Below, piece after piece: positions 760-60,097 of a DNA stretch of 64,000 nucleotides (position 1 is its first letter; each line of letters begins with the position of its first letter). The notes under the pieces are model-generated. The model was not told the origin of the DNA and did not search any database. It saw only the letters and a list, made by a program, of their open reading frames with translations. The translations under genes were made by a program, and so were the position numbers. The stretch lies in contig JAAWCJ010000023.1 of NCBI GenBank assembly GCA_022793195.1, positions 38,812-102,811 on the forward strand, in the 5' to 3' direction. Source of the stretch: Lachnospiraceae bacterium. Its GTDB lineage: Bacteria > Bacillota > Clostridia > Lachnospirales > Lachnospiraceae.

Positions 760-1398
760 ATGTTGAATTATCTGTGGGGAGGCATGATCCTCATCGGCGT
801 CGTATGGGGAATCCTTTCGGGAAAACCGGCGGAACTGACCGACGGGATTTTGACTGGGGCGAAGGACGCGGTTTCCCTCTGTATCACCATGGCCGGGGTG
901 ATGGCCTTCTGGTGCGGAATCATGGAGGTGGCAAAAGAGGCGGGCATTATCAGGGGGTTGACCAGGTTTCTTCATCCTCTAGTGAGGTTCCTGTTTCCCA
1001 GGTTGCCGGAGGGGCATAAGGCGGAGGACGAGATTTCAACAAACATCGCGGCCAATGTGCTAGGGCTTGGATGGGCGGCCACCCCAGCGGGGCTTAAAGC
1101 TATGGAAAGCCTGGAAGAACTGGAGGAAGAACGCAGGAAGAGCGGGAAGCAGACGGGGAGAAAAAGAGACGGGCAGCTACCGGCTCCCCGCGGGGTGGCC
1201 AGCAATGAGATGTGTACGTTCTTGATTTTGAATATCTCGTCCCTGCAGCTGATTCCAGTGAACATGATCGCTTACCGGAGCCAGTACGGAAGCGTGAACC
1301 CGACAGCCATCGTGGGGCCGGCCATTGTGGCGACCGCGGTGAGTACGGCGGTGGCAATCATATTTTGCAAGGTGATGGACAGGAACCGGAGAGTGTAG
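760..1398 (+). CDS. spmA: spore maturation protein A / nucleoside-recognition-domain membrane protein
   Basis: The sequence MLNYLWGGMILIGVVWGI...NIAANVLGLGWAATPAGLKAM is typical of SpmA/Gate-domain proteins. The start was moved to the ATG at 760, which has GAGGA upstream; the track start at 742 is a TTG. Confidence 0.75.
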   Translation: MLNYLWGGMILIGVVWGILSGKPAELTDGILTGAKDAVSLCITMAGVMAFWCGIMEVAKEAGIIRGLTRFLHPLVRFLFPRLPEGHKAEDEISTNIAANVLGLGWAATPAGLKAMESLEELEEERRKSGKQTGRKRDGQLPAPRGVASNEMCTFLILNISSLQLIPVNMIAYRSQYGSVNPTAIVGPAIVATAVSTAVAIIFCKVMDRNRRV

Positions 1399-1417
1399 GC
1401 TCTCCGGTTTTGCTTTT
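1386..1417 (+). terminator. intrinsic terminator after spmA
   Basis: Hairpin CCGGAGAG-TGTAGG-CTCTCCGG overlaps the stop codon and is followed by TTTTGCTTTT. Confidence 0.6.
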
Positions 1418-1528
1418 ATCGTATAGGAAACTTCGTTCCCTATACGATAAAAAGCCCTCCGGGAGTTCGCACTGCGGCGGAACGGAATGATCTTGCTGAC
1501 GCAAGCCGCCGCAGGATTCTTTTTTATA
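1416..1528 (+). repeat. left copy of a hairpin-containing direct repeat (partner at 8936-9001), carrying a 47-bp internal hairpin insert
   Basis: Positions 1416-1463 match 8936-8983 with 2 mismatches by eye, and 1511-1528 is identical to 8984-9001. It contains the perfect stem TTATCGTATAGG/CCTATACGATAA. Confidence 0.85.
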
Positions 1529-1665
1529 ATCCGGGAAAGTCCTTTAAATAATGATTCATTATGTACAAAGATATGTGAACAGAGTATAATACAAATGATG
1601 GATCCTTTGAGATTATGCCGTTGTAATAACTGCCACACTGAAAAGGTGGAAAGAGGTGAAGAAAG

Positions 1666-2997
1666 ATGCTGCAGGAAAGTAACCGTATAGAGTTGAAGGC
1701 CACATTAAATGATAAAATGGAAAAAGAGGTTGTAGCTTTTTTAAATAACCGTGAGGGCGGGGTACTGTATATAGGCATTGATGATAAGGGATGCCCTGTT
1801 GAAAATTCGGACATAGATTCTATGCAGTTAAAAATAGCAGATAGAATTAAAAATAATATCCTCCCGTCAACTTTAGGATTATTCGATATTGTCAGTGAAG
1901 CTGTGGAAAATATACCAGTGATTAAGGTAATTGTATCCAGCGGCCTTGAGAAGCCTTATTATATTAAAAATAAAGGAATGTCGCCAAGCGGCTGTTATAT
2001 GAGGATTGGAACCTCAACACAGTCTATGCCTGCGGCGCTGATAGATGAATTATATGCAAAGAGGGTTCATACAACATTACGTAACATTCCTTCACCCAGG
2101 CAGGATCTTACCTTTGCACAGCTTAAGATATATTATCAGGAACGTGGCTTGGAACTGAATAGACAGTTTGCCAATAGTCTTGAATTACTTACGCCTGAAG
2201 GAAAATATAATTATATTGCATATTTATTGGCGGATGAAAATGGTGTATCCATTAAGGTTGCAAAATATGCAGGAAAAGATAAAGTTATCCTGAAAGAAAA
2301 TGAAGAATACGGATATTGTTCTCTGATTAAGGCAACGAATCATGTTTTGGAAAAAATGAAAATCGAAAATGCTACAAAGGCAAAAGTAACCAGTACAAAG
2401 CGGATAGAAAAAAATCTGGTGGAACCAGTTCCGTTGAGGGAAGCATTGATCAATGCGATTGTTCATAATGACTTTTCAAAAGAAATACCGCCGGTATTTG
2501 AAATTTTCAATGATCGGATGGAGTTTACATCTTACGGAGGCTTGATTCGGGGACAGAGCAGAGAGGATTTTTTCAGTTGCAGCAGTATGCCAAGAAACAG
2601 GGAACTAATGCGAGTGTTTAAGGATGTGGGGTTGGTTGAGCAGCTGGGGTCGGGGATGAGCCGCATTTTAAATGCTTATGACAGAACTGTTTTTGAAATA
2701 TCCGAGCATTTTATTAAGGTCATTTTCCCGTTTTCATGGGCAGATGAAAAAGAAAACATTGCAGTTGGAAATATAAATGGCGATGAAAATGGCGATGAAA
2801 ATGGCGATGAAAATGGCGATGAAATAAGAATTCTGTCAATATTGAAAAAAGAACCTTCCATCAGGGCTAAAGAATTAAGTGAAAAGACAGGGTTTAGTAC
2901 CAGAAAAGTCAGCCGCCTGATAAAGAAGCTTCGGGAATCAGGAAAAATAACCCGTATCGGTTCTGACAGAAAAGGTTATTGGGCAATCAGCAAATAA
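1666..2997 (+). CDS. AlbA_2 (Schlafen-like 'divergent AAA') + HATPase_c_4 + C-terminal winged-HTH putative regulator
   Basis: The N-terminus ESNRIELKATLNDK...GGVLYIGIDDKG...YYIKNKG...YMRIGTST is typical of the AlbA_2 domain. The middle region LREALINAIVHNDF...LVEQLGSGMSRI is typical of HATPase_c_4. The C-terminal ILSILKKEPSIRAKELSEKTGFSTRKVSRLIKKL is an HTH. The gene is AT-rich. Confidence 0.7.
   Translation: MLQESNRIELKATLNDKMEKEVVAFLNNREGGVLYIGIDDKGCPVENSDIDSMQLKIADRIKNNILPSTLGLFDIVSEAVENIPVIKVIVSSGLEKPYYIKNKGMSPSGCYMRIGTSTQSMPAALIDELYAKRVHTTLRNIPSPRQDLTFAQLKIYYQERGLELNRQFANSLELLTPEGKYNYIAYLLADENGVSIKVAKYAGKDKVILKENEEYGYCSLIKATNHVLEKMKIENATKAKVTSTKRIEKNLVEPVPLREALINAIVHNDFSKEIPPVFEIFNDRMEFTSYGGLIRGQSREDFFSCSSMPRNRELMRVFKDVGLVEQLGSGMSRILNAYDRTVFEISEHFIKVIFPFSWADEKENIAVGNINGDENGDENGDENGDEIRILSILKKEPSIRAKELSEKTGFSTRKVSRLIKKLRESGKITRIGSDRKGYWAISK
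2776..2823 (+). repeat. perfect 12-bp x4 in-frame tandem repeat (AATGGCGATGAA; encodes NGDE x4)
   Basis: Read directly from the sequence. It forms the linker between the HATPase_c_4 region and the wHTH of the 1666-2997 ORF. Confidence 0.95.
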
Positions 2998-3056
2998 AGT
3001 ATTAAAGACCGCCAGACGAGGCTGCGGCGGGAAAAGATCGAAACGAGGTTGAGATC

Positions 3057-6000
3057 ATGGATGTTAAGGAATATGAGAAAATTTTACAGGCAGTGCCGGC
3101 TACGGGAGTGTTCATTATCCGGGAGGATAATCATGAAATTTTGTATTATAACGAGCGGGTACGGGAGGCATCGCCCCATGTGCATAAAGGGATGGCCTGC
3201 CATGAGCTGGGGGATCATTCCTGCGCCAACTGTCCGCTTTTAACCATCGGGGAGAGGGAGACCAATCAGAGTATTAGCTACAACAATGCTTTTGGTGAAA
3301 TTGTGGATATCACAGCAGTGAGAACCATGTGGGAAGACAGGATCCCGGCCTTTATTATTACAGTGGCCCCCCATGTACAAGCTATTAATTATACATATTA
3401 TAAGATACTGAGGATTAATCTGACACAGGACAGTTATGAAGTGGTGAAAATGAGGCCGGAAGACAGGGGGATAGGCTATGGAAAAGATACTTTTTCCGGC
3501 TGGCTGGGGCAGTTTATCTACAGCGGTGACATCCATCCTGACGATATGAACAGTTTCATATCATTTACCCATCCGGATCATTTGAAAAAGGCCCTGGAAG
3601 AGGGGCAGAAGGTGCTGACCTGCTGTTACAGAAGGCGTTTGGGGGATGATTATTCCTGGAACCTCCTGGAGGTGGTGCCGGACTTTTCCGCCGGAGACCA
3701 GTTCGTTTTCCTGTACGTAAAAGATGTGAATGATATTTTGCAGGAAAGCCTGAAGCTGGATGATACAAATCTCCGTATCCAGGAAGTGATCCGAACACTT
3801 GGAGAACAGAATTTCGGTATTTATGGCGTTGACCTGGATACAGGAGAGGCCAACCTGGTACGGGAAAACGGCCATACTCATACAGGCTGGAAATCCTGGA
3901 CGGTTCAATGGGGCGAAATCATGGATTCCCGCCTTGTGAGGCAGATTCATCCGGCGGACAGGGAGAAGTTTTGTGAGAACTTTTCTTTGGAGGGGCTGCA
4001 GCAGACAAAGGAGACAGGTGTACATAAAACAGACATGCTCTGTAAGTGGCGGGGGGAGGAAGACCACGAGTACCGTTATATGGCTGTGATCGCCTATTTT
4101 GGAGAGCAGTATAATACAAAGAATTATACCATTGTAGCCCTGCAGAATGTGGATAAGCGTGTGCGCCAGGAGCAGACACTGTCGCTCCGTGACATGCAAC
4201 TGGCGGCAATCCTTAAATCCAGATATAGTGTTATGACGACAGTTTATTTGGAGAATGGCCAGTGTGAGCGGGTCTGGATCAATGGAGACAGTAAAATGCA
4301 GGGGGTTCAGACAGGAAATTATCATCAGTATTTTCACCAGGCGCTGGAAAGTATCGTTTACCCGGAGGATGTAGAAAAGTTTCAGGAGATTATGAGCCCG
4401 GAGCACTTATATCAGAAGGCGGCCAATACACGGGATTATTCAGAAGAAATCTGCCAGTACCGCATAGAAGGAGAATCTTTGCAGTGGCTGGAGCAGCATG
4501 TGATCTATTCAAGGCAGGGAAGCAGGATGTCCGTAAATATCCTGGGACGGGACATCACCGACGAAAAACTGGAAGAGGAGACCCGGCTTAAAGAAGAGCA
4601 GGAGCAGGAGAATATTATCCGTACATTGGGCAGCATGTTTTTTGCCACTTATTATGCGGATTTAGAGCAGAATACATTCCGCAGTGTGACGCAGCTTCAG
4701 GAAGTGGAAAAGGTATTGGAAGGAAAAATGGACTATGCGGCGGGCCTTAAGGCCTATGCGGAAAGCTTTATCCACCCTGATGACCGCGAAGAATATTTGA
4801 ATGTTTTGGGAATTGAGAATCTGCGGCGGAATTTAAGCAGAAAAACTCCTTATGTAACGCTGGCGTATCGGAAAATTCCTGAAGGTTCCAATGTAAAGCC
4901 GGAGGAATACGGATGGATTCGCGGTACTGCCGTGATGTCCCAGGCTGATGGGGAGGGGAAAGCCAGGTCCATTGTGTATGCGGCGCAGGACGTGACAGAA
5001 AGTAAGCGCAAGGAGATGAGGGAGCAGCAGGCCCTTCAGGCAGCATGCGAGGCGGCAGACCAGGCCAATGCTTTCCGAAGGGAATTTCTTGCCAGCATGA
5101 GCCATAATATCCGCACTCCGATGAATGGCATACTTGGTATGCTTAAGATTGCGTCAGACCATATAGACGATCATGAAAGAGTAAAGGACTGCCTGGAGAA
5201 AGCGTTTGTTTCCAGCCACCAGCTTCTTTCCATGCTCAATGAAATCCTGGATATCAGCCTGATTAAAGCCGGAAGCTTTGCACTGAAGGCGGAAGCCTTC
5301 TGCCTGTCTGAGCTGATGGAGGAGGTGGTCTCTGCCGTCAGCGCCGACATGCGGGAAAAGGCCCTGCAGATGAAAATTCACCCCATGCAGGTGATTCATG
5401 AAAATATTCTGGGAGACAGGCAGCGGCTTTTGCAAATATTTCTGAATATTTTAGGTAATTCCATAAAATATACGCCGCCTGGCGGAACCCTGGAAATTTT
5501 GGTTGTTGAACATGAATCAGGGGAGCATGGCTGCAGTTCCTATGATTTTGTTTTTCGTGACAGTGGTATCGGCATGGACGAAACGTATCTACCCCATATT
5601 TTTGAACCCTTCAGCCATGCCGAAGACCCTTACATTGCCAGGGCGGATGGCGTCGGTCTGGGGATGTCCATTGCCCAGAATATAGCGCGTATGATGGGCG
5701 GGACCATCAGCGTGGAAAGTACGCCTGGAAAAGGTTCCGAATTTACGGTGACGATTATTTTAAGACGGCAGAATTCCGATGAGGCGCCGGGAAGCCTGTC
5801 CGGTTTAAACCAGGAAGATTTTTCAGACATTTCCTTCGGTGGCTTCAAGATTCTTTTGGTGGAGGATAATGAATTGAACCGGGAGATTGCCATGGAGCTG
5901 ATTGGAGAGACCGGAGCCATGGTGGAATGTGCCGGGGATGGGCGGAAAGGCCTGCAGCGTTTTGCTGAAATGCCGGAGGGATACTATGATCTGGTGCTTA

Positions 6001-6233: not shown

Positions 6234-8435
6234 ATGGAGGCTTTTGACATGGATTCTTTATTTCATGAAAAAAGGGATGCTGCGCACAGAGGGGGAGCTC
6301 TTGTGCTGGCCTTTGCACTGATTGTTGTTATTCTTTTGGCACTGGTCATTTCGACCGGATGGTTTATGGAATCTGCTCAGAAGACGACAGAGATTTCTGT
6401 CCATAATGTAAGTGAATTTTATCTGAAGGAGCTATCTGCCCAGACAGGGCGTCAGCTGCGAAACAGCCTGGATTATCAGCTGCGGAATCTCAAAGCGGCC
6501 ATTGATATTGCCGGAGAAAAAGAGTCGGAAAACCTGGTTTCTTTTCAGCAGTATATTTCAAAAATGGAAATGCTTTATGGATTCGACTTTTATGTGATGG
6601 TGGATGAAAATGGAACCGTATACACACGGGACGGCGAATATCCAGATAGGGTAACGTCGGATTTTGTGGCGAAAGCAAATTTTCAGGCGCCGGAAATTTT
6701 TGTGGACCAGGGGCAGGGAGGGCAGAATACGGTGATCATTACCGCGCCGGCCCAGGGTATGAAACTTGATGGAAAATCTTTAGTGGGCGGTATGGCCGGC
6801 GTTAGCGCCGACACCATATCCGGCGGACTTTTTCTGAAGGATGACGAAAATCAGATTTTTTCCAATGTAATTCTCAAAGATGGCTCTTATATAGTAAAAA
6901 CTCCCCATAGCCATATGAAAAGCAGCAGTGATGTTTTTTCTGCGTTGGAGGAACAGGCGGTTTTTCATAAAGGAAATTTTACAGAGCAGATGCAAAAGGA
7001 TATGGAGGCAGGAAAAAGTGGGATTATTACATACTACCTTGAAGGGATTTTGCACTACACTTATTATGCCCCGGCAGCAGGGACAGACTGGTATCTTACC
7101 ACGACGATTCATTATGATACGGTCAGTACGAATATAGAGGCCGTCAGCGCCGCAATTACCAGAAATAGCATGATTCAGCTCCTTTTGGTGCTGTTTGTGG
7201 TGTTGGTGGTATTTGTGGTGTATTTCTGGCAGCGCAGGAAAAATGAGATTTTATATCTTGAAAAAATCCAGGCGGAGGAGAGCAGTAAAGCGAAAAGCCA
7301 GTTTCTTTCTAATATGTCCCACGATATCCGCACACCGATGAATGCCATCATTGGTTTCACAGATCTGGCGCTCCAGTGTGAACCAGGTGCCGATGCAGGA
7401 CGCATTGGTGATTATCTGACAAAAATCCGTACAGCCAGTACACATTTGCTGGGCCTTATTAATGATGTACTGGATATGAGCCGGATTGAGAGTGGAAAAA
7501 TGCATTTGGATATGACGCCCTGCCGTCTCTCTGATATTTTATCTGAGATAGATGATATTGTCCGGGGACAGGCCGGGGAGAGACAGCAGACATTTCGGAT
7601 TGAGACCGCCGGCCTTAGCCATGACTGTATTTATTGCGATAAGCTGCGGCTGAACCAGATTCTTTTAAATCTTTTGGGGAATTCCATCAAATTTACGCTA
7701 CAGGAAGGAGAGATTTCTCTGACGGTGTTGGAGAAGCCTGGCGCCCACAGTGGATACGGAGCCTATGAATTCAGGGTAAAAGACAATGGAATTGGCATGA
7801 CGCCGGAATTCGCAAAAAAGGTTTTTGAACCATTTGAACGGGAAAGGACCTCTACAGTCAGCGGTATTCAGGGAACCGGCCTTGGCATGGCAATTACGAA
7901 AAGTATCATTGACCTGATGAATGGTTCCATCTTTGTGGAGACAGAACTGGGCAAGGGAACAGAATTTATCCTGAATGTGGAATTTAAGCTTCAGGAAGAG
8001 AAGGATTATGAGGCGGCGCCAAAGGCCCGGGGGGAATGTCAGGCGGTGGATTTCAGTGGAAAGAAAATCCTCCTGGTGGAAGACAATGAGCTGAACCGGG
8101 AAATCGCAGTGGAGCTTTTAAAAGAGTATGGCTTTGAAATTGAAGAGGCGGGGGATGGCACCGAGGCGGTGGAAAAGATAAAAGATGCCAAACCCGGAGA
8201 ATATGATTTGATTCTCATGGATATCCAGATGCCGGTTATGGACGGATATACGGCAACCCGGAAAATCCGGGGTTTAAAGGATTCGGCCTGTGCAGATATT
8301 CCCATTATTGCAATGACGGCAAATGCTTTTGAGGAAGATAAAAAGCAGGCGCTGGAAAGTGGAATGAATGAACATGTTGCCAAGCCGGTAGATATCGAGG
8401 ATTTGAAAGCAGTACTATCCAATGTTTTGAGATAA
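6234..8435 (+). CDS. membrane hybrid sensor histidine kinase / response regulator with extracytoplasmic (Cache-like) sensor domain
   Basis: Two TM segments flank a ~280-aa extracellular region. H-box FLSNMSHDIRTPMNAIIGF, ATPase motifs GNSIKFT and DNGIGM...GTGLGMAI, and receiver ILLVEDNELNREI...LILMDIQMPVMDG...KP. Confidence 0.85.
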   Translation: MEAFDMDSLFHEKRDAAHRGGALVLAFALIVVILLALVISTGWFMESAQKTTEISVHNVSEFYLKELSAQTGRQLRNSLDYQLRNLKAAIDIAGEKESENLVSFQQYISKMEMLYGFDFYVMVDENGTVYTRDGEYPDRVTSDFVAKANFQAPEIFVDQGQGGQNTVIITAPAQGMKLDGKSLVGGMAGVSADTISGGLFLKDDENQIFSNVILKDGSYIVKTPHSHMKSSSDVFSALEEQAVFHKGNFTEQMQKDMEAGKSGIITYYLEGILHYTYYAPAAGTDWYLTTTIHYDTVSTNIEAVSAAITRNSMIQLLLVLFVVLVVFVVYFWQRRKNEILYLEKIQAEESSKAKSQFLSNMSHDIRTPMNAIIGFTDLALQCEPGADAGRIGDYLTKIRTASTHLLGLINDVLDMSRIESGKMHLDMTPCRLSDILSEIDDIVRGQAGERQQTFRIETAGLSHDCIYCDKLRLNQILLNLLGNSIKFTLQEGEISLTVLEKPGAHSGYGAYEFRVKDNGIGMTPEFAKKVFEPFERERTSTVSGIQGTGLGMAITKSIIDLMNGSIFVETELGKGTEFILNVEFKLQEEKDYEAAPKARGECQAVDFSGKKILLVEDNELNREIAVELLKEYGFEIEEAGDGTEAVEKIKDAKPGEYDLILMDIQMPVMDGYTATRKIRGLKDSACADIPIIAMTANAFEEDKKQALESGMNEHVAKPVDIEDLKAVLSNVLR

Positions 8436-8540
8436 CCGGTACGGGGGCTTGTGGCTGCAGACGTTTTGTGCTAAAATGTGATGACATGGGCAGACGGGCA
8501 TCAGCAAAAGCCTATAGCCCAAAAGACAGGAGGAATTTTT

Positions 8541-8906
8541 TTGGAGGAAAGGCACACTCACATTCACATAGGGGAAAATGGAGAATTGATAGAGCACAGC
8601 CACGGCGGGAGCGGGCATAATCATGAAGGGCATATTCATGGCCATGTGCATACCAATACGAAAGCCGTATTGAACCGGCTCAGCCGGGCCATCGGACATC
8701 TGGAATCCATCCGGCGGATGGTGGAAGAGGGAAGGGACTGCAGTGAGGTTTTAATCCAGCTGTCGGCCGTGAAATCAGCCATCAACAATACGGGGAAGGT
8801 CATCCTGCAGGACCACATTGAACACTGCATCGTGGATGCGGTGGAGTCCGGCGACCATGAAGCGCTGGAGGAGCTTTCAAAAGCCATTGACCGCTTTATA
8901 AAATGA
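8541..8906 (+). CDS. CsoR/RcnR-family metal-sensing repressor with His-rich N-terminal extension
   Basis: The core LNRLSRAIGHLESIRRMVEEGRDCSEVLIQLSAVKSAINNTGKVILQDHIEHC carries the C...H...C ligand pattern of CsoR-type DUF156 proteins. The likely start is the in-frame TTG at 8541, 8 nt after AGGAGG; the track ATG at 8478 lacks an RBS. The N-terminus is HTHIHIGENGELIEHSHGGSGHNHEGHIHGHVH. Confidence 0.75.
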   Translation: MEERHTHIHIGENGELIEHSHGGSGHNHEGHIHGHVHTNTKAVLNRLSRAIGHLESIRRMVEEGRDCSEVLIQLSAVKSAINNTGKVILQDHIEHCIVDAVESGDHEALEELSKAIDRFIK

Positions 8907-8910
8907 AAGA

Positions 8911-8937
8911 AGGCCAGGAATTCCTGGCCTTTTTATT
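8911..8937 (+). terminator. intrinsic terminator after the CsoR-like gene
   Basis: Perfect palindrome AGGCCAGGAATTCCTGGCCT followed by TTTTATT. Confidence 0.7.
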
Positions 8938-9001
8938 ATCGTATAGGAAACTTCGTTCTCCATACGATAAAAAGCCCTCCGGGGCAGGATTCTTTTTTAT
9001 A
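8936..9001 (+). repeat. right copy of the direct repeat (partner at 1416-1528)
   Basis: See the 1416-1528 feature. This copy lacks the 47-bp insert. Confidence 0.85.
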
Positions 9002-9081
9002 CAAAGAAGAATTTCCAAATTTTGGGAAAGAATATAAAATTGCGTAATGACCCCGGATATGGTAAAATGGGTAACGGATGA

Positions 9082-10077
9082 ATGAAGGAAACAGAAAGGG
9101 GGCGCTCGGACGTGGATTATATTGTGCTGGATTTGGAATGGAATCAGAGCCCCAGAGGAAAATCCGGAGAGCGCTACGGACTGCCTTTTGAGATTATTGA
9201 AATTGGGGCGGTAAAATTGGATGAGAGCCGGAGGGTTTGCGGACAGTTTAACGAAAGAATTAGGCCGGCAGTTTACCGCCAGTTTCACTATAAAACGAAA
9301 GAAATTCTTCAAATTGACATGAAGGAGCTGGATGAGGCCAGAAGCTTTAAAGAAGTGGCACAGGATTTTTTCGACTGGTGCGGGCAGGAATATGTGTTGT
9401 GTACCTGGGGTTCCATGGATTTGACGGAACTTCAGCGGAACCTCCGTTATTTCAGGGTGGAAAATCCTATGAAAAAACCGCTTCTTTATTATGATATCCA
9501 AAAGCTGTTCAGCCTTCTTTACGAAGACGGCAAAAGCCGCCGTTCTTTAAAGGATGCGGTGGAATATTTGAAAATAGAGGAAGATATTCCCTTTCACCGG
9601 GCGTTGGATGACACCTTGTATACGGCAAAGATTATGGAAAAGATGGATATGGATGCAGTACGGCAGTATTTATCCGTGGATTATTTTCATGTTCCGGGAA
9701 AAAAGGAAGAGGAGCTTCATATGGTGTTTGATGGATATGCCAAGGATGTTTTTCGGATTTTTCCTACAAAAGAGCATCTGATGGAAGATAAAGAAATCGT
9801 TTCCACGAAATGTTATCGCTGTAAAAGAAGCCTGCGGAAAAAGGTAAGATGGTTTTTGGCAGGAGGGAGGAATTATCTTTGTCTGGCATTTTGCCCGGAG
9901 CATGGATATATGAAGGGAAAGCTGAGGATAAAGAAAGCGGAAAGAGGCGGTGTTTTTGCCGTAAAAACATTAAAACTCATTTCAGAGGAAGAGGCGGAAT
10001 CAGTCCGGGAAAAAAAGAAAGAACAGGAAAAAAAGAGGCGGGCGAAGAATAAGGCGGCTAAGAAAACTGCCGATTAG
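9082..10077 (+). CDS. DEDD-family 3'-5' exonuclease domain protein with Lys-rich C-terminal tail
   Basis: ExoI motif YIVLDLEWNQ, then FEIIEIGAVKL, and an ExoIII-like HRALDDTLYTA (DEDDh). The tail is KKKEQEKKRRAKNKAAKK. An alternative GTG start lies about 30 nt downstream. Confidence 0.7.
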   Translation: MKETERGRSDVDYIVLDLEWNQSPRGKSGERYGLPFEIIEIGAVKLDESRRVCGQFNERIRPAVYRQFHYKTKEILQIDMKELDEARSFKEVAQDFFDWCGQEYVLCTWGSMDLTELQRNLRYFRVENPMKKPLLYYDIQKLFSLLYEDGKSRRSLKDAVEYLKIEEDIPFHRALDDTLYTAKIMEKMDMDAVRQYLSVDYFHVPGKKEEELHMVFDGYAKDVFRIFPTKEHLMEDKEIVSTKCYRCKRSLRKKVRWFLAGGRNYLCLAFCPEHGYMKGKLRIKKAERGGVFAVKTLKLISEEEAESVREKKKEQEKKRRAKNKAAKKTAD

Positions 10078-12674: not shown

Positions 12675-12966
12675 GAGGGGTAGGGGAAGATGTGGGGGGC
12701 TGTTGCAAAATATAAAATATCCTGATATTTATATCTGCCCGGCCCCCTTCCTGTTTTCGTTTTCGTCCACGTTGATTTTTAGGTTTTGTTTTGCCGCCTA
12801 TTGCCGCCAGCCGCCGCTTCCATAGAAGCCCGTCAGCGGGACTGGCGCCGCTAGCCTCACAAAACCTGCAAAATCTGCCTATCGGACAAACACGAAGACA
12901 GGAAGGGGGGCCGGGCACATACAAATTCTGATATTTTGCAACAGCCCCTCATATTTTCCCCACTCC
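12675..12966 (+). repeat. hairpin-repeat family, copy A (conserved core about 12745-12908, variable outer inverted arms)
   Basis: Long imperfect palindrome. The core is about nine-tenths identical by eye to the reverse complement of 16780-16941. The outer arms GGGGCTGTTGCAAAATAT / ATATTTTGCAACAGCCCC are specific to this copy. Confidence 0.85.
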
Positions 12967-13051
12967 ATCATTTAGAAATTTCAATATACACGGCCTCAGT
13001 GCAGTACACGAAGCCTTGTGCTGGCTGGCAGCGTTTTGGCAAATCCTCCCA

Positions 13052-56088: not shown

Positions 56089-56841
56089 ATGAAGCGCAAG
56101 ATGGAAATCAACGGCCTTACCATAGAGGCAGAATATCCAGATAAAACGGTGGAAACCATATTTTTACCGCTGTTGTCCGGTTTAAGCCGGAAGCAAAGGG
56201 AGCTTGGAAGACGGCTGGTGGTGCTGCTGGCAGCGCCTCCTGCCACAGGAAAAAGTACATTGGTTAAATTTCTCACACAGCTTTCGGGGGAAACGCCGGG
56301 ACTTGTCCCGGTGACGGCGGTGGGCATGGACGGGTTTCACCATTATCAGGAATACCTGCTTTCCCATACGGTTTTCCGGGATGGAAAGGAAATCCCGATG
56401 ACTTATGTGAAGGGGGCGCCCGTCAGCTACGATCTCGATGGTTTTCGGGCCAGGCTTTCCAGAGTCCGCACGGAAAAGGCCTGCCCCTGGCCGGAATACA
56501 ACAGGAAGCTCCATGATCCTGTGGACAATGCGGTTTTGATTGAGGGGGATCTTGTGTTGATCGAGGGGAATTATCTGCTTCTCGACCAGGACGGATGGCG
56601 GGATTTGAGAGATTATGCGGACTATACGATACGGATCCTGGCAAAGGAGGAAGATGTGAGAGACAGGCTCATCTGGCGGCGGGCCAGCAACGGTGTGCCT
56701 CAGAAAGAGGCAGAGTACATGGTTGACAGCAATGACCTCCCCAATGTGCGCCTCTGCATGGAAGAGTCCATGGAAGGCGACCTGACCCTGCGGCTTGACG
56801 GAAGCGGGGACTATGAATACGTATCCGGGAGACTGCCGTGA
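56089..56841 (+). CDS. P-loop nucleoside/nucleotide kinase family protein (uridine kinase/PRK-like)
   Basis: Walker A APPATGKST and the pattern LIEGNYLLLD typical of PRK/udk-like kinases. GC content is like the backbone. Confidence 0.55.
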   Translation: MKRKMEINGLTIEAEYPDKTVETIFLPLLSGLSRKQRELGRRLVVLLAAPPATGKSTLVKFLTQLSGETPGLVPVTAVGMDGFHHYQEYLLSHTVFRDGKEIPMTYVKGAPVSYDLDGFRARLSRVRTEKACPWPEYNRKLHDPVDNAVLIEGDLVLIEGNYLLLDQDGWRDLRDYADYTIRILAKEEDVRDRLIWRRASNGVPQKEAEYMVDSNDLPNVRLCMEESMEGDLTLRLDGSGDYEYVSGRLP

Positions 56842-56981
56842 GGCGGGGAACGGTTCGAGCGTATTGTTGTCAGCGAAGGCCGGAATTTTTTTACGGTGTA
56901 TGATTGCGAAAGAGAATAAAGTTGGTTATACTGTAATTATAGATTCATTCGCAGAAGGATTGCCGGAAAGGATGGCATAAT

Positions 56982-58130
56982 ATGCTGAAAAGATTTACAG
57001 TAAAAAATTTTAAAAATTTTAAAGACAGTATAAGCATAGATTTTGAAAATATCGCCGGTTATCAATTTAGTACGGATTGTATTGTGGACGGATTGATCGG
57101 CAAGATGCTGATTTATGGAAGAAATGCGACAGGAAAGACGAATTTAGGAAAGGCGATTGCGGATATCCGCTTTACATTGTTTGGAGGACTGGTTAAAACA
57201 GGAAGTTTTCTTAATGTAGATTCACAAGAAGAGTCCGCTGCTTTTTCGTATGTGTTTCAATTTGGAGACAAGGAGCTTACTTACCGATATGCCCGGTATT
57301 CGGAACGAGAAATGCGTGAAGAGGAGCTGCTTATAGATGGGCAGACGATCTTCAGGTGTGATTTTTTCAATGAAGAGTATAATTTTGATAATCTGAAATA
57401 TATCGGCGCAGAGACGGCGAATACGGAAAGGTATTTACAAAATTCTCTTGATGAAGATGATATGGAGGAGACTTTAGGCCCTAGATTGCCTTTCTTGAGA
57501 TGGCTGACCAGCAATGTGGCCTTTGGGAATGATTCGCCGGTAATCCGCTTATCCGATTATGCCGAAAAAATGTTATTTATCACTGTAGGAAGTGTTACGG
57601 CATTTCGTTATCGGAGAATCAATGACAGATTTTTTGAAGCATTGGAAAATGAGGGAAACCTGAAGGGTTTGGAAGAGTTCTTAAATGCCATGGGGGTTGA
57701 ATGTAAATTGGTATTAATGAAATTACCGGACGGGCGGAAGGAGTTGTATTTTGCCCATGAAACGAAGCTGCTACCTTTCTATGAAAGCGCTTCCAGCGGT
57801 ACTCTGGCGTTAGTGGATTTATATCGTATAATTTTAAGAGCAGGAAGCGCTTCTTTCTTATATCTGGATGAATTTGACGCATTTTATCATTACGAGATGG
57901 CGGAAACGGTAATCCAATTTTTTAAAAAGAAGTATCCAGGTTGCCAAATGATTATTACCACGCATAACACCAATTTGATGACGAACCGGCTGCTGCGTCC
58001 GGACTGCCTGTTTATTCTGTCAAGGACCGGGACATTGACGGCGCTTTGTAATGCGACGATGAGAGAGCTGAGGGAAGGGCATAACCTGGAGAAAATGTAT
58101 ATCAGCGGGGAGTTTGAAAAATATGAATGA
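56982..58130 (+). CDS. ABC-like AAA ATPase (AAA_15/AAA_21-type), candidate defence ATPase
   Basis: MLKRFTVKNFKNFKD... N-terminus, Walker A GRNATGKTN, a signature-like SASSGT, Walker B FLYLDEFDAFYH, and an H-loop IITTHNTNLM. Strongly AT-rich. Confidence 0.75.
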   Translation: MLKRFTVKNFKNFKDSISIDFENIAGYQFSTDCIVDGLIGKMLIYGRNATGKTNLGKAIADIRFTLFGGLVKTGSFLNVDSQEESAAFSYVFQFGDKELTYRYARYSEREMREEELLIDGQTIFRCDFFNEEYNFDNLKYIGAETANTERYLQNSLDEDDMEETLGPRLPFLRWLTSNVAFGNDSPVIRLSDYAEKMLFITVGSVTAFRYRRINDRFFEALENEGNLKGLEEFLNAMGVECKLVLMKLPDGRKELYFAHETKLLPFYESASSGTLALVDLYRIILRAGSASFLYLDEFDAFYHYEMAETVIQFFKKKYPGCQMIITTHNTNLMTNRLLRPDCLFILSRTGTLTALCNATMRELREGHNLEKMYISGEFEKYE

Positions 58131-59151
58131 TTATTGGGGGACCGGGAGAAAACGAGGCCGGAGCCTGTTGATTGTAGAGGGGAATCACGAGAAAAATAAG
58201 TTATTCCGGCTGATTTTCCAGTGTTTTCCTGAAATTCATATTGATATGGATGATATCTGGATTTATGGTACTAACATATATGTACTCTATGGAGATATTG
58301 TGAAAGAATATGGCAGTGGGTGGAGCGAGGATGATACTGTCGGTATTGATTTGCCGTTTATCATCAGTAAGAAGCAGCATCCGGCTCAGCTCTGTTATAA
58401 AAGGGATTTTATAAACATTATTTTAGTGTTTGACTACGAACGCCATGATACGAACTTTTCAGAAGAAAAAATCTTGGAATTGCAAAATTATTTTGTTGAT
58501 GGGACAGATATGGGGAAACTGTATATCAATTATCCTATGATAGAATCTTACCAGCATTTAAGGTCATTGCCAGACGAGGAGTACGTAAACAGGAAAGTAT
58601 CTGTGTCTTTACGGCCGGGAAAAGAGTATAAAGCATTGGTCAGGGATGAAACAGTGCTTTCTGCACATTTTGGTTTTACGCATAAAGTGGAGGGATTGCT
58701 GAAAGAACATTTTGAGATTCAGGAAGAACAGATATGGAAGAGGTGTTATACGGCAATTTTAAATATTTCTAATGTATCAGATATGGACGCGACATTGGTG
58801 GATACTTTGCAAAATCATATTGGAACAGACCAGCTGCGGACAGCAAAGTATCAGTTTAAAGATTTAATACTGAAGCAGGGATACATACAGAATGGCCAGA
58901 CCTATTGGGAATATATGCGGGATGTGTTCAAACAGATTATATACCATAATATCCGTAAAGCAAAGCATGTTCAGAGTGGCTATCATGAGATCGAAGAAGG
59001 TCAGTATAAAGAGTGCTTTGAACAGCTGGATTTGGCAGAGATCTTAAAGATACAAAATTTGGGCAGCCGGGATGCTGAAACAGGATTTATCTGGGTGTTG
59101 AATACCTGCGTGTTTTTTGTAGCAGAGTATAATTTTGGATTGGTAGTGTAA
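58123..59151 (+). CDS. Toprim-like RloB/DUF4435-related protein with unrecognised C-terminal helical domain
   Basis: The ATG overlaps the upstream stop codon (ATGAATGA); the track start is a TTG at 58114. LLIVEGNHEKNKLF, ILVFDYERHD and INYPMIESYQHL resemble the RloB motifs (IvcEGekTE.nYF, vvfDrD, P.FE.W..H). The family call is from motif memory. Confidence 0.6.
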   Translation: MNDYWGTGRKRGRSLLIVEGNHEKNKLFRLIFQCFPEIHIDMDDIWIYGTNIYVLYGDIVKEYGSGWSEDDTVGIDLPFIISKKQHPAQLCYKRDFINIILVFDYERHDTNFSEEKILELQNYFVDGTDMGKLYINYPMIESYQHLRSLPDEEYVNRKVSVSLRPGKEYKALVRDETVLSAHFGFTHKVEGLLKEHFEIQEEQIWKRCYTAILNISNVSDMDATLVDTLQNHIGTDQLRTAKYQFKDLILKQGYIQNGQTYWEYMRDVFKQIIYHNIRKAKHVQSGYHEIEEGQYKECFEQLDLAEILKIQNLGSRDAETGFIWVLNTCVFFVAEYNFGLVV

Positions 59152-59162
59152 TTATTTATTAC

Positions 59163-59426
59163 TTCCACGGACGATTACATTGCCTGCCAGAAAAGCGCCG
59201 CCGAGATTGGCAACGGTTATTAAAGACAAATGAACGATACCCTCAAAAATCCCACAGACGGCTTTCCGCCCGTATCCTTAAGCATTGGCGGCGCCTTTTC
59301 CGCGCAAGGGTTCTCTGAAAATCTCTCTATGTGAAGGCTGACAGCGCCCTTTACGCCGTCAAGGAATATGGGAGGTGTGGGTGCCAGTTTTATGAGGAAA
59401 AGAATCAGCAGAATATGGATACATAA
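59163..59426 (+). pseudogene. 3' remnant of a GGDEF (diguanylate cyclase) domain gene, frameshifted
   Basis: ...PVSLSIGGAFSAQGFSENLS, then a frameshift near 59330, then VKADSALYAVKEYGRCGCQFYEE-stop. This matches the characteristic end of GGDEF domains (vSiGia...ADeALYrAKr.GRn). Upstream TSTDDYIAC may be a degenerate GGDEF site. There is no start codon or N-terminal part. Confidence 0.45.
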
Positions 59427-59474
59427 AATGCTTTTTATGCCAAGTGGCCAATATTATCATCCGGTTTTTATGAG

Positions 59475-59503
59475 GTATAAAATTCCTTCGTTTACAAATA
59501 CTA
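59475..59503 (+). promoter_or_regulatory. possible forespore (sigma-G/F-type) promoter of spoVT
   Basis: GTATA, 17 nt, AATACTA, compared with the consensus GHATR-N17/18-CATxxTA. Confidence 0.3.
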
Positions 59504-59548
59504 GTATCACGCAAAATACCAGTATGGATAAACGGAGGAATTTTTATT

Positions 59549-60097
59549 ATGAAAGCAACAGGAATCGTGAGAAGGATAGATGATTTGGGACGGGTGGTGA
59601 TTCCAAAAGAAATCCGCCGGACTTTACGGCTCAGAGAGGGTACGCCGCTGGAAATCTTTACCGACAGAGAGGGCGAAATTATCCTGAAAAAATATTCTCC
59701 CATGGCGGAGCTTGGGAATTTTGCGAAGCAGTATGCGGATGCATTAGCCCAGTCCACCGGCCTTGCGGTCTGTGTCACCGACAGGGATCAGGTCATTGCG
59801 GTGGCCGGAGGAGCGAAAAAGGAGCTTTTGCAGAAGGGAATCAGCAAAGCGTTGGAACAGTCCATTTTAAACAGAAATAATGTGATGGCAGGAAAAGAGG
59901 AGGGGCAGTTTATCCCGGTGACTGATGATGATACGGATGAGTATTCCGGTGAAGTGACGGCGGTTATCCTCTGTGAAGGGGATGCCATTGGTTCTGTCCT
60001 CCTGCTTTCCAAAGATCCGAAATATAAGATGGGGACGTTGGAGCAGAAATTGGCGTCCACAGCGGCAGGTTTTTTGGGGAGGCAGATGGAAAGCTGA
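59549..60097 (+). CDS. spoVT: stage V sporulation protein T (AbrB-family regulator)
   Basis: MKATGIVRRIDDLGRVVIPKEIRRTLRLREGTPLEIF SpoVT/AbrB swapped-hairpin N-terminus plus a GAF-like C-terminal domain. It occupies the conserved position after mfd. Confidence 0.9.
   Translation: MKATGIVRRIDDLGRVVIPKEIRRTLRLREGTPLEIFTDREGEIILKKYSPMAELGNFAKQYADALAQSTGLAVCVTDRDQVIAVAGGAKKELLQKGISKALEQSILNRNNVMAGKEEGQFIPVTDDDTDEYSGEVTAVILCEGDAIGSVLLLSKDPKYKMGTLEQKLASTAAGFLGRQMES

Follow-up and report, generated by a model that had tools for sequence, protein, structure and literature searches.

A predicted PDC-M12 defence operon, an ABC-type ATPase gene with a Toprim-like partner, in a cargo hot-spot next to spoVT in a Lachnospiraceae genome

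What is a pair of overlapping, AT-rich genes doing inside a sporulation gene cluster, and might it protect its host against phages? The question is raised by a stretch of 64,000 nucleotides from a Lachnospiraceae bacterium (assembly GCA_022793195.1, contig JAAWCJ010000023.1, positions 38,812 to 102,811 of the forward strand), here called the window, in which two open reading frames, ORF1 and ORF2, lie between a kinase gene and spoVT. A first-pass annotation, made from the letters alone, had proposed an anti-phage system of a possibly new variant. Both proteins match PADLOC models of the candidate family PDC-M12 and their genes are adjacent on the same strand, so that by sequence the pair is a long-form member of that family and a sister of lactococcal AbiL. 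It is not a new variant, because PADLOC already catalogues PDC-M12 (1.1e-91 to PDC-M12A for ORF1, 2.3e-31 to PDC-M12B for ORF2). On balance we think it probable that the cassette is an acquired, self-contained PDC-M12 operon of abortive-infection type, in which an ATPase would act as sensor and keeper of a Toprim-like nuclease and a palindrome would serve autoregulation. The two genes are as follows.

56982..58130, + strand: ORF1, ABC (ATP-binding cassette)-type ATPase (PDC-M12A; AbiLi-like), 382 amino acids (aa), ATG start
58123..59151, + strand: ORF2, PDC-M12B long form, 342 aa counted from the ATG, with a predicted Toprim-like N-terminal and a helical C-terminal domain

Both lie on the forward strand where they had been placed, and the start of ORF2 runs over the stop of ORF1 in an 8-nt overlap, ATGAATGA at 58123-58130, which couples their translation. 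ORF2 might instead start at an in-frame TTG (58114), but the ATG at 58123 is favoured over it because homologues begin MNxY.... Each of the peptide motifs quoted in the first-pass annotation (GRNATGKTN, LYLDEFD, ITTHNTN, LLIVEGNHEKNKLF, ILVFDYERHD and INYPMIESYQHL) was found in the translations.

The family to which the pair is assigned is itself a prediction. The PDC systems are 145 candidates, predicted through 'guilt by embedding' and added to PADLOC (Payne et al., bioRxiv 10.1101/2024.01.29.577857). The name PDC-M12 denotes the twelfth multi-gene phage defence candidate; it was proposed from its embedding in BREX, DISARM or type I restriction-modification (RM) loci, and stands in the supplementary table of the same work as cassette CAS_00072 with a count of 272. 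A full-text literature search for the name PDC-M12 gave no paper, and it occurs only in that table.

The assignment of ORF1 is clear-cut. Its residues 1-379 align with positions 1-368 of the 369 in the PADLOC PDC-M12A model PDLC04426 (1.1e-91), while the AbiLi model PDLC02335 matches more weakly (3e-43) and the AriA models score far lower than either (1.3e-22 and 8.4e-10). In Pfam, both AAA_21 (5.3e-22; 79.7 bits against a gathering score of 27) and AAA_15 (3.2e-9; 37.3 bits against 32.1) are matched above threshold, which bears out the earlier description of an ABC-like AAA_15/21 ATPase; the AbiLi and AriA matches likewise agree with the AbiL/PARIS-type architecture, ATPase plus Toprim-like partner, that had been recognised. 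Among PDB sequences no close solved structure was found, nor one matching AriA, and a profile search produced only PtuA (0.0023). Across 21 homologues of 48-70% identity the invariant residues are G51/K52/T53, S271/G273/T274, D296/E297/D299 and H328. By our own assignment these would represent, respectively, Walker A, a signature-like SSGT motif, Walker B with D-loop, and the H-loop, and since they are invariant ORF1 looks like a catalytically competent ATPase. The first approximately 400 of the 1071 positions of the phage protein family phrog_5836 also align with ORF1, hinting at ATPase-effector fusions.

ORF2 matches all five PADLOC PDC-M12B models, the best being PDLC04431 (2.3e-31, residues 13-176); the 251-position model PDLC04430 (3e-30) covers residues 14-336. 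It has no AbiLii or AriB match in PADLOC and no NCBIfam match. Comparison with PDB sequences, by single sequence or by profile, yielded nothing useful, only helical-bias noise (interferon, 0.006), and a PHROGs search returned only families of unknown function. The 734 homologues of ORF2 in a 90%-clustered collection are all of about 340 aa and none carries a Pfam domain; one of them, from a Lachnospiraceae metagenome-assembled genome, is an exact copy. At 50% clustering the family comprises 1279 representatives, short forms of 244-269 aa included.

Connections to known families emerge through these more distant members. Among 25 diverse relatives, 11 match PADLOC AbiLii (best 1.3e-7) and five match Pfam RloB (PF13707; best 2.7e-5), with single relatives reaching Pfam Toprim (0.013) and OLD-like_TOPRIM (0.027). 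The AbiLii and RloB alignments run collinearly from the start of the profile (position 1 for RloB); those to RloB score 19.7-24.9 bits, under the Pfam gathering threshold of 31.5. A relative that carries a precomputed RloB call, P0428, scores 27.1 bits, also under that threshold, and is a clear PDC-M12B member when aligned with the ORF2 family (hhalign probability 99.5%). DUF4435 (PF14491) gave no signal in ORF2 or in the 25 relatives scanned. On this evidence PDC-M12B is a sub-threshold sister of RloB and AbiLii, and by sequence neither a member of Pfam RloB nor AriB-like. The motif set first read in ORF2 as RloB/DUF4435 therefore survives in its RloB half, through relatives and below the Pfam threshold; the DUF4435 half does not, and ORF2 itself has no Pfam match. 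One further protein, P0421 (411 aa), is a fusion variant in which an HD domain (PF01966) accompanies a segment resembling PDC-M12B (50% identity over 47% of P0250).

Structure prediction gives a consistent picture of what ORF2 may be. A first AlphaFold model, from a shallow alignment, had a predicted local distance difference test score (pLDDT) of 78, with approximately 60 in the N-terminal domain; the Foldseek matches of that poorly modelled version (MDA5, EF-G, lumazine synthase) are meaningless and were discarded. It was replaced by an AlphaFold2 model from a diverse alignment, with a pLDDT of 94 and a predicted template modelling score of 0.91. Its core is a four-strand β/α unit (β1 13-18, β2 45-47, β3 96-104, β4 131-137), followed by a helical domain at residues 165-342. 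The core corresponds to the following segment.

58159..58602, + strand: ORF2 α/β domain, residues 13-160, from the secondary structure of the model and invariant columns

In the model E19 lies directly after β1, D104 closes β3 and E141 stands just past β4, a Toprim-like placement; all three, together with K170 and K279, are invariant in the diverse alignment, whose members are 25-48% identical. Against 350,542 PDB chains Foldseek ranked AriB (8ux9_A) first (E 0.066), the Ts OLD nuclease (6p74) second (E 0.5) and the C-terminal region of Xcc OLD (6njv) sixth (E 1.1). In BFVD a 'RloB-like protein' came first (E 0.25), followed by Toprim primases, at non-significant scores. Because sequence bridges, topology and structural rankings coincide, we regard a Toprim-like, RloB-related fold as very probable. 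Nuclease activity of ORF2 is inferred; its candidate active-site residues would be E19/E23, D104/E106 and E141, plus K170 or K279 of the helical domain.

The C-terminal half was divided by comparing long and short forms in two alignments, A1 and A2.

58675..58908, + strand: helical insert of the long, clostridial form, ORF2 residues ~185-262, where short forms (244-269 aa) are gapped in alignment A2; pLDDT >90
58909..59148, + strand: shared C-terminal helical segment, ORF2 residues 263-342 (alignments A1 and A2)

Short and long forms share their last approximately 80 residues, with the motifs hNIxKA (containing the invariant K279), ILxxQ and vLNTCxF..DYN. Because the short forms keep this segment, the C-terminal half is a helical domain common to the whole family, comparable to that of OLD nucleases, and not an appended sensor domain; only the insert of about 80 aa at residues ~185-262 is, on the same comparison, peculiar to the clostridial long form. 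This disposes of the earlier suggestion that some 190 extra C-terminal residues form a newly added part: a helical C-terminus is present in all members, and residues ~185-262 are all that is specific.

How, then, did the pair come to lie beside spoVT? Its base composition sets it apart: the GC content of the pair is 0.396, against a mean of 0.482 for the window (standard deviation 0.026 in 2.17-kb windows), which ties for the lowest of 619 overlapping windows of that size. At third codon positions the pair has a GC content of 0.42-0.43, whereas seven of nine measured flanking genes have 0.52-0.63, YabQ (0.517) and YabO (0.417) falling below. The AT-richness noted at first is thus borne out by windowed profiles, and the hand counts on which it stood (13, 20, 35 and 34 G+C of 60) were reproduced exactly.

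The nearest relatives of the upstream kinase gene are in sister species, at 78-82% aa identity. One of these, L089, has the backbone pth-mfd-prsA-like-kinase ... spoVT-mazG-hup-S4(yabO)-yabP-yabQ-divIC-spoIIE. In a blastn comparison with it, homology of the backbone stops at 56843, the kinase stop, and restarts at 59467, 82 bp before spoVT, which delimits a 2.6-kb variable segment in a hot-spot.

56844..59466, no strand: segment variable with respect to the sister species (blastn against L089), cassette plus a 315-bp non-conserved tail
59152..59466, no strand: the non-conserved tail, ORF2 stop to spoVT leader, possibly (weakly) a frameshifted remnant of a GGDEF C-terminus

Sister species hold other cargo between kinase and spoVT: an α-amylase and a SLFN_AlbA_2/HATPase_c_4 gene in L089 (8843-12345); an amylase, an AAA_14/DUF4143 ATPase and a BlaR/BlaI-like pair in L091 (937-8876); and an amylase, a methyltransferase and a peptide ABC transporter in L094 (7068-14884). 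The interval is a cargo hot-spot within a conserved sporulation cluster. The view that the pair is acquired DNA within the conserved order pth-mfd...spoVT-mazG-hup-yabO-yabP-yabQ-divIC-spoIIE is upheld by these comparisons; the sisters lack the pair, which is hence not a fixed, backbone-like part of this site in all relatives. As first observed, neither an integrase nor a tRNA gene marks the borders: the neighbours are backbone genes, no tRNA occurs within 30 kb of the pair, and neither flanking direct repeats nor inverted repeats at either border were found.

The sequence that follows the ORF2 stop is not conserved across loci, and the tail has no similarity to any fetched locus. Two of its reading frames translate as ...SLSIGGAF... 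and ...ADSALYAVKEYGR..., resembling the C-terminus of GGDEF; with a Pfam GGDEF match of only E 0.18, the tail may, weakly, be a decayed GGDEF-like remnant of earlier hot-spot cargo. Two terminator-like hairpins of the - strand lie inside it at 59196-59274.

The wider distribution was surveyed in 88 loci, 80 from GTDB species representatives and eight metagenomic. In nearly all those with room, an ATPase gene stands immediately 5' of the ORF2 homologue, and the coordinates of most are consistent with an identical overlap of 8 nt. The neighbours of the pair are unrelated from one locus to another. The pair is lower in GC than its flanks in 71/71 loci (mean difference -0.11); its GC nevertheless correlates with that of the host (r = 0.80), suggesting partial amelioration. 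Short-form pairs are carried on ColE1-type plasmids of only 4.0-4.4 kb in Escherichia and Raoultella (L096, L098, L099), whose other annotation consists of replication and mobilisation genes (Rop, MobA, a helix-turn-helix protein) with or without one short hypothetical, and another PDC-M12 pair is on a 9-kb Pectobacterium plasmid (L100). The archetypal enterobacterial plasmid pair, in which the B protein has about 260 aa, matches the PADLOC PDC-M12 models at 6e-176 and 9e-120. Relatives are also encoded on 43 IMG/VR viral contigs; a tblastn search of the INPHARED phage collection gave no match. Taken with its composition and its variable site, this distribution identifies the cassette as horizontally acquired, mobile accessory DNA.

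A few loci adjoin Wadjet, type III CRISPR, Lamassu or Avs genes. Among 130 immediate neighbours at 33 loci the few known defence genes are JetA, Csm4/5/6, LmuA, Avs1a and PDC-S70, a raw count that is suggestive. In five Acetatifactor loci (L005-L008 and L014) a homologous pair, at 6860-9029, lies directly 5' of spoVT (9244-9789), in surroundings that otherwise differ. Since the junction sequence is not common to these loci and the window, their similarity being confined to the last 22 nt ahead of the spoVT ATG and what follows, the arrangement has the look of a separate insertion event or of chance. Travel of the pair together with spoVT, or an ancestral junction, was considered and rejected for the same reason and because most loci have no spoVT nearby. 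A separate curiosity is L062, in which four copies of about 35 nt (2500-2535, 5832-5866, 8300-8335 and 12959-12994) are near-identical to the first codons of spoVT, which encode the AbrB/SpoVT N-terminal domain, and therefore indicate several AbrB-family paralogues around the pair there.

A feature of the family that is new in this analysis lies in the leader of the operon. Approximately 105 nt 5' of ORF1 are conserved as DNA across unrelated contexts, and in the window contain three elements.

56880..56896, no strand: 17-bp palindrome, window copy CCGGAATTTTTTTACGG, with one mismatch to the family core
56904..56932, + strand: predicted promoter-like site of conserved sigma-A type, TTGCGA, 17 nt, TATACT (consensus scan and leader alignment)
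56965..56972, + strand: ribosome-binding site GGAAAGGA, 9 nt 5' of the ORF1 ATG (sequence)

The order is palindrome, 7 nt, a -35 element TTGCG/TTGTG (56904), a constant 17-nt spacer, a -10 element TATACT (56927-56932), the ribosome-binding site GAAAGGA and the ATG. The TTG of the -35 element and TATACT, at constant spacing, are conserved in 43 aligned leaders from unrelated contexts, as is the ribosome-binding consensus GAAAGGATGG in the leader alignment. The palindrome has the core CCGTAA-(TTTTT or AAAAA)-TTACGG, 17 bp in length. Allowing at most one mismatch, it occurs once per locus in 81/98 sources (1.6 Mb in total), never twice, and once in the window, always 5' of the ATPase gene and approximately 58-162 nt before its ATG. 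It spans Bacillota chromosomes, proteobacterial ColE1 plasmids and viral contigs, across protein identities down to <30%: on the viral contigs it precedes the ATPase gene in 40/43 loci, whose proteins are 25-43% identical to ORF2, and on the proteobacterial plasmids it is near-perfect or degenerate (CCGTAAAAAAAATACGG in Pectobacterium, GTGTAATTTTTTTACGG in Escherichia and Raoultella).

Base pairing often continues past the core, the flanks differing between loci yet remaining complementary through compensatory changes. A permutation test of these flanks found 320/568 positions paired against 269 +/- 9.3 expected, a value reached in 0/5000 shuffles. A formal count over 84 sequences gave 71.4% of cells paired against 65.9 +/- 0.8 after shuffling (0/500), with 149 double-sided changes against 97 +/- 7; slid controls gave 35-44%. 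Some copies fold strongly as single strands, at -13 to -19 kcal/mol, but the hairpin of the window copy is not significant (-3.1 kcal/mol, z -0.18). Structure alone therefore cannot be the conserved feature, and the idea of a pure hairpin was dropped; Rfam has no match in 56700-59650. The palindrome is most likely an integral regulatory site of the module, probably an autoregulatory operator as in toxin-antitoxin (TA) modules, with a structural or mobility role also possible. A bolder proposal is that it acts as a functional third component, either a hairpin or operator to which the ATPase or the helical domain of ORF2 binds, setting the ratio of toxin to keeper, or a DNA site by which the cassette, lacking an integrase, passes from one replicon to another, and that together with the long-form insert it would define PDC-M12 as a distinct, cross-phylum family of ATPase-Toprim defence systems whose cis-regulatory logic is its own. 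We put this forward as speculative and rather unlikely.

What might the pair do? Abortive-infection or TA-like defence is its likely function, and we suggest that it most probably works like AbiL/PARIS-type systems despite failing membership of RloB, AbiLii and AriB/DUF4435. The module carries its own palindrome, predicted promoter and ribosome-binding site, and the palindrome would most likely autoregulate the operon. By analogy with these systems, ORF1, the ABC ATPase, would sense infection and keep ORF2 inactive within a complex, until a phage cue released ORF2 or switched it on. ORF2, as a metal-dependent Toprim-like nuclease, would then cut host or phage nucleic acid, either tRNA as in PARIS or DNA as in OLD and Gabija, and the cleavage would arrest growth and so abort the infection.

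Several observations weigh against this proposal. The first-pass annotation had considered that its reading would fall if no Toprim, RloB or DUF4435 profile matched ORF2 significantly, and taken literally that is the result, Pfam giving no match to ORF2 at E≤1. The structural matches to AriB and OLD are non-significant (E 0.066-1.1), and the acidic motif of ORF2 is D104-Y-E106 where the canonical Toprim motif is DxD. Most loci are 'solo' copies outside recognisable defence islands, our literature search found no defence test of any PDC-M12 member, and some related candidates failed to protect when assayed (HEC-01 in one study, PDC-M63 and PDC-S04). The profile, Foldseek and motif results would be expected if ORF2 were no nuclease at all, its degenerate Toprim-like domain acting as a binding or regulatory module and the effector lying elsewhere, for instance in depletion of ATP by ORF1 or in an activity of the helical domain. 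We consider this improbable: E19, D104 and E141 are invariant among members at 25-48% identity, the acidic residues stand at the C-terminal ends of β1 and β3 and after β4, as expected of a metal site (compare E400, D455/D457 and E508 of Bp OLD; PMC6755086), and relatives bridge to AbiLii and RloB.

The solo copies bear on a different alternative, in which the pair is primarily a selfish, TA-like addiction module stabilising the small plasmids, prophages or genomic islets that carry it, with ORF2 as toxin, ORF1 as antitoxin or keeper and the palindrome as operator, phage defence being absent or incidental. Plasmids of 4.0-4.4 kb annotated with little besides the pair and the genes for their own replication and mobilisation would suit such a module, as would tight translational coupling and a conserved promoter-proximal palindrome typical of autoregulated TA operons, and PARIS itself acts as a type II TA pair (PMC13064643). 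Addiction is, however, compatible with defence, many TA-like systems being abortive-infection systems; the family was first found embedded in BREX, DISARM and RM loci, and AbiL, the closest characterised relative, confers phage resistance. As the primary role we judge addiction rather unlikely. Far less likely still is a housekeeping or sporulation-linked factor for DNA transactions tied to spoVT. The pair does lie immediately 5' of spoVT in two lineages, the window and the Acetatifactor loci; in L010 hup-yabO-yabP-yabQ follow some 6 kb downstream, and the interval from ORF2 to spoVT showed no + strand terminator. But the pair is missing from sister species that share the backbone, its neighbours at over 70 further loci are unrelated, the family extends to non-sporulating Proteobacteria, plasmids and viral contigs, the two junctions share nothing beyond those 22 nt, and the pair is compositionally foreign, so that its distribution largely refutes the link.

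Two other features of the window deserve brief mention. The spoVT leader at 59479-59544 contains an inverted repeat with 29-nt arms (59479-59507 and 59516-59544) just 5' of the spoVT ATG at 59549. As an RNA hairpin it reaches -26.2 kcal/mol (z -5.6), with the spoVT Shine-Dalgarno sequence GGAGG in its 3' arm, and L089, a sister species, keeps it as well (154 nt at 94.8%, where blast also gives a self-inverted match); it may be an element of translational or transcriptional control of spoVT. A second stretch of low GC (0.41-0.43) at 1200-3000 holds an ORF at 1666-2997 (443 aa) with a fourfold GDEN repeat and a C-terminal tail resembling a helix-turn-helix. BLASTP finds weak similarity (E 5e-4) between its product and the SLFN_AlbA_2/HATPase_c_4 protein of the L089 hot-spot, and it may be another accessory gene.

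This gut Lachnospiraceae genome thus holds, at a hot-spot in its sporulation cluster, a member of a widespread predicted defence family found on chromosomes, small plasmids and viral contigs. New here are the definition of where the module begins and ends, the comparison of the hot-spot with sister species, the insert of the long form and the palindrome shared by the family. The precise extent of the operon, its conserved promoter with the palindrome, and a contrast of long and short forms that isolates the insert of about 80 aa all provide handles. Candidate catalytic residues add to these, K52 in the ATPase and E19, D104, E141, K170 and K279 in the nuclease-like protein, and the small ColE1-type plasmids, with L100, would offer a convenient natural construct of the family. 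If active, the family would add another branch to the ABC-ATPase and Toprim defence class beside AbiL, PARIS, OLD and Gabija, and would show RloB-like nucleases to have diverged well past current Pfam models.

When compared with the PDC-M12 archetypes, the window pair agrees in gene order, strand, overlap and the palindrome 5' of the ATPase gene. It differs in its B protein, 342 aa in this clostridial form with the insert of ~80 aa against ~260 aa in the enterobacterial short form, and this protein matches the PDC-M12B models chiefly across its N-terminal half; the family itself is known by prediction only. In Lactococcus lactis, the abortive-infection system AbiL consists of two genes, for AbiLi, a Rad50-like ABC ATPase, and AbiLii, predicted to be Toprim/OLD-like (PMC13064643). 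It shares with the window pair the two-gene operon in which an ABC/Rad50-like ATPase precedes a Toprim-type protein, and the AbiLi model matches ORF1 (3e-43). ORF1 nevertheless fits PDC-M12A far better; ORF2 itself matches neither AbiLii nor RloB, the best relative remaining at 27.1 bits against the RloB cut-off of 31.5; and the abortive-infection phenotype is known for AbiL alone.

In PARIS, AriA and AriB form one immune complex, with three AriB monomers per AriA hexamer, and once triggered the Toprim nuclease AriB cuts host tRNA (PMC11464382, bioRxiv 10.1101/2025.02.04.636281). The resemblance lies in an AAA_15/21-type ABC ATPase paired with a Toprim-containing effector of ~35 kDa, AriB being the top structural neighbour of ORF2 in the PDB. 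In contrast, neither ORF2 nor the 25 relatives gave a DUF4435 signal, the AriB match is non-significant (E 0.066, TM 0.17-0.19), and the AriA match of ORF1 (1.3e-22) is weaker by 69 orders of magnitude than that to PDC-M12A (1.1e-91).

The OLD family (P2 Old, the Class 2 Bp and Xcc OLD proteins, and GajA) gives no significant match to ORF2 in sequence or structure, and OLD and GajA fuse ATPase and nuclease in one polypeptide where the window has separate genes. The catalytic region of Bp OLD consists of a Toprim domain followed by a helical domain, with E400/E404, D455/D457, T506/E508 and K562 (PMC6755086). The metal ligands of OLD are an E...E pair after β1, DxD after β3 and an acidic residue opening the helical part, with a lysine contributed by the helical domain (PMC6755086). 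E19/E23, D104/E106, E141 and K170/K279 of ORF2 would correspond to these, as we infer without superposition. PDC-M12 belongs with OLD, Gabija, PARIS, AbiL and HEC-01 in the wider defence class that combines an ABC ATPase with a Toprim nuclease.

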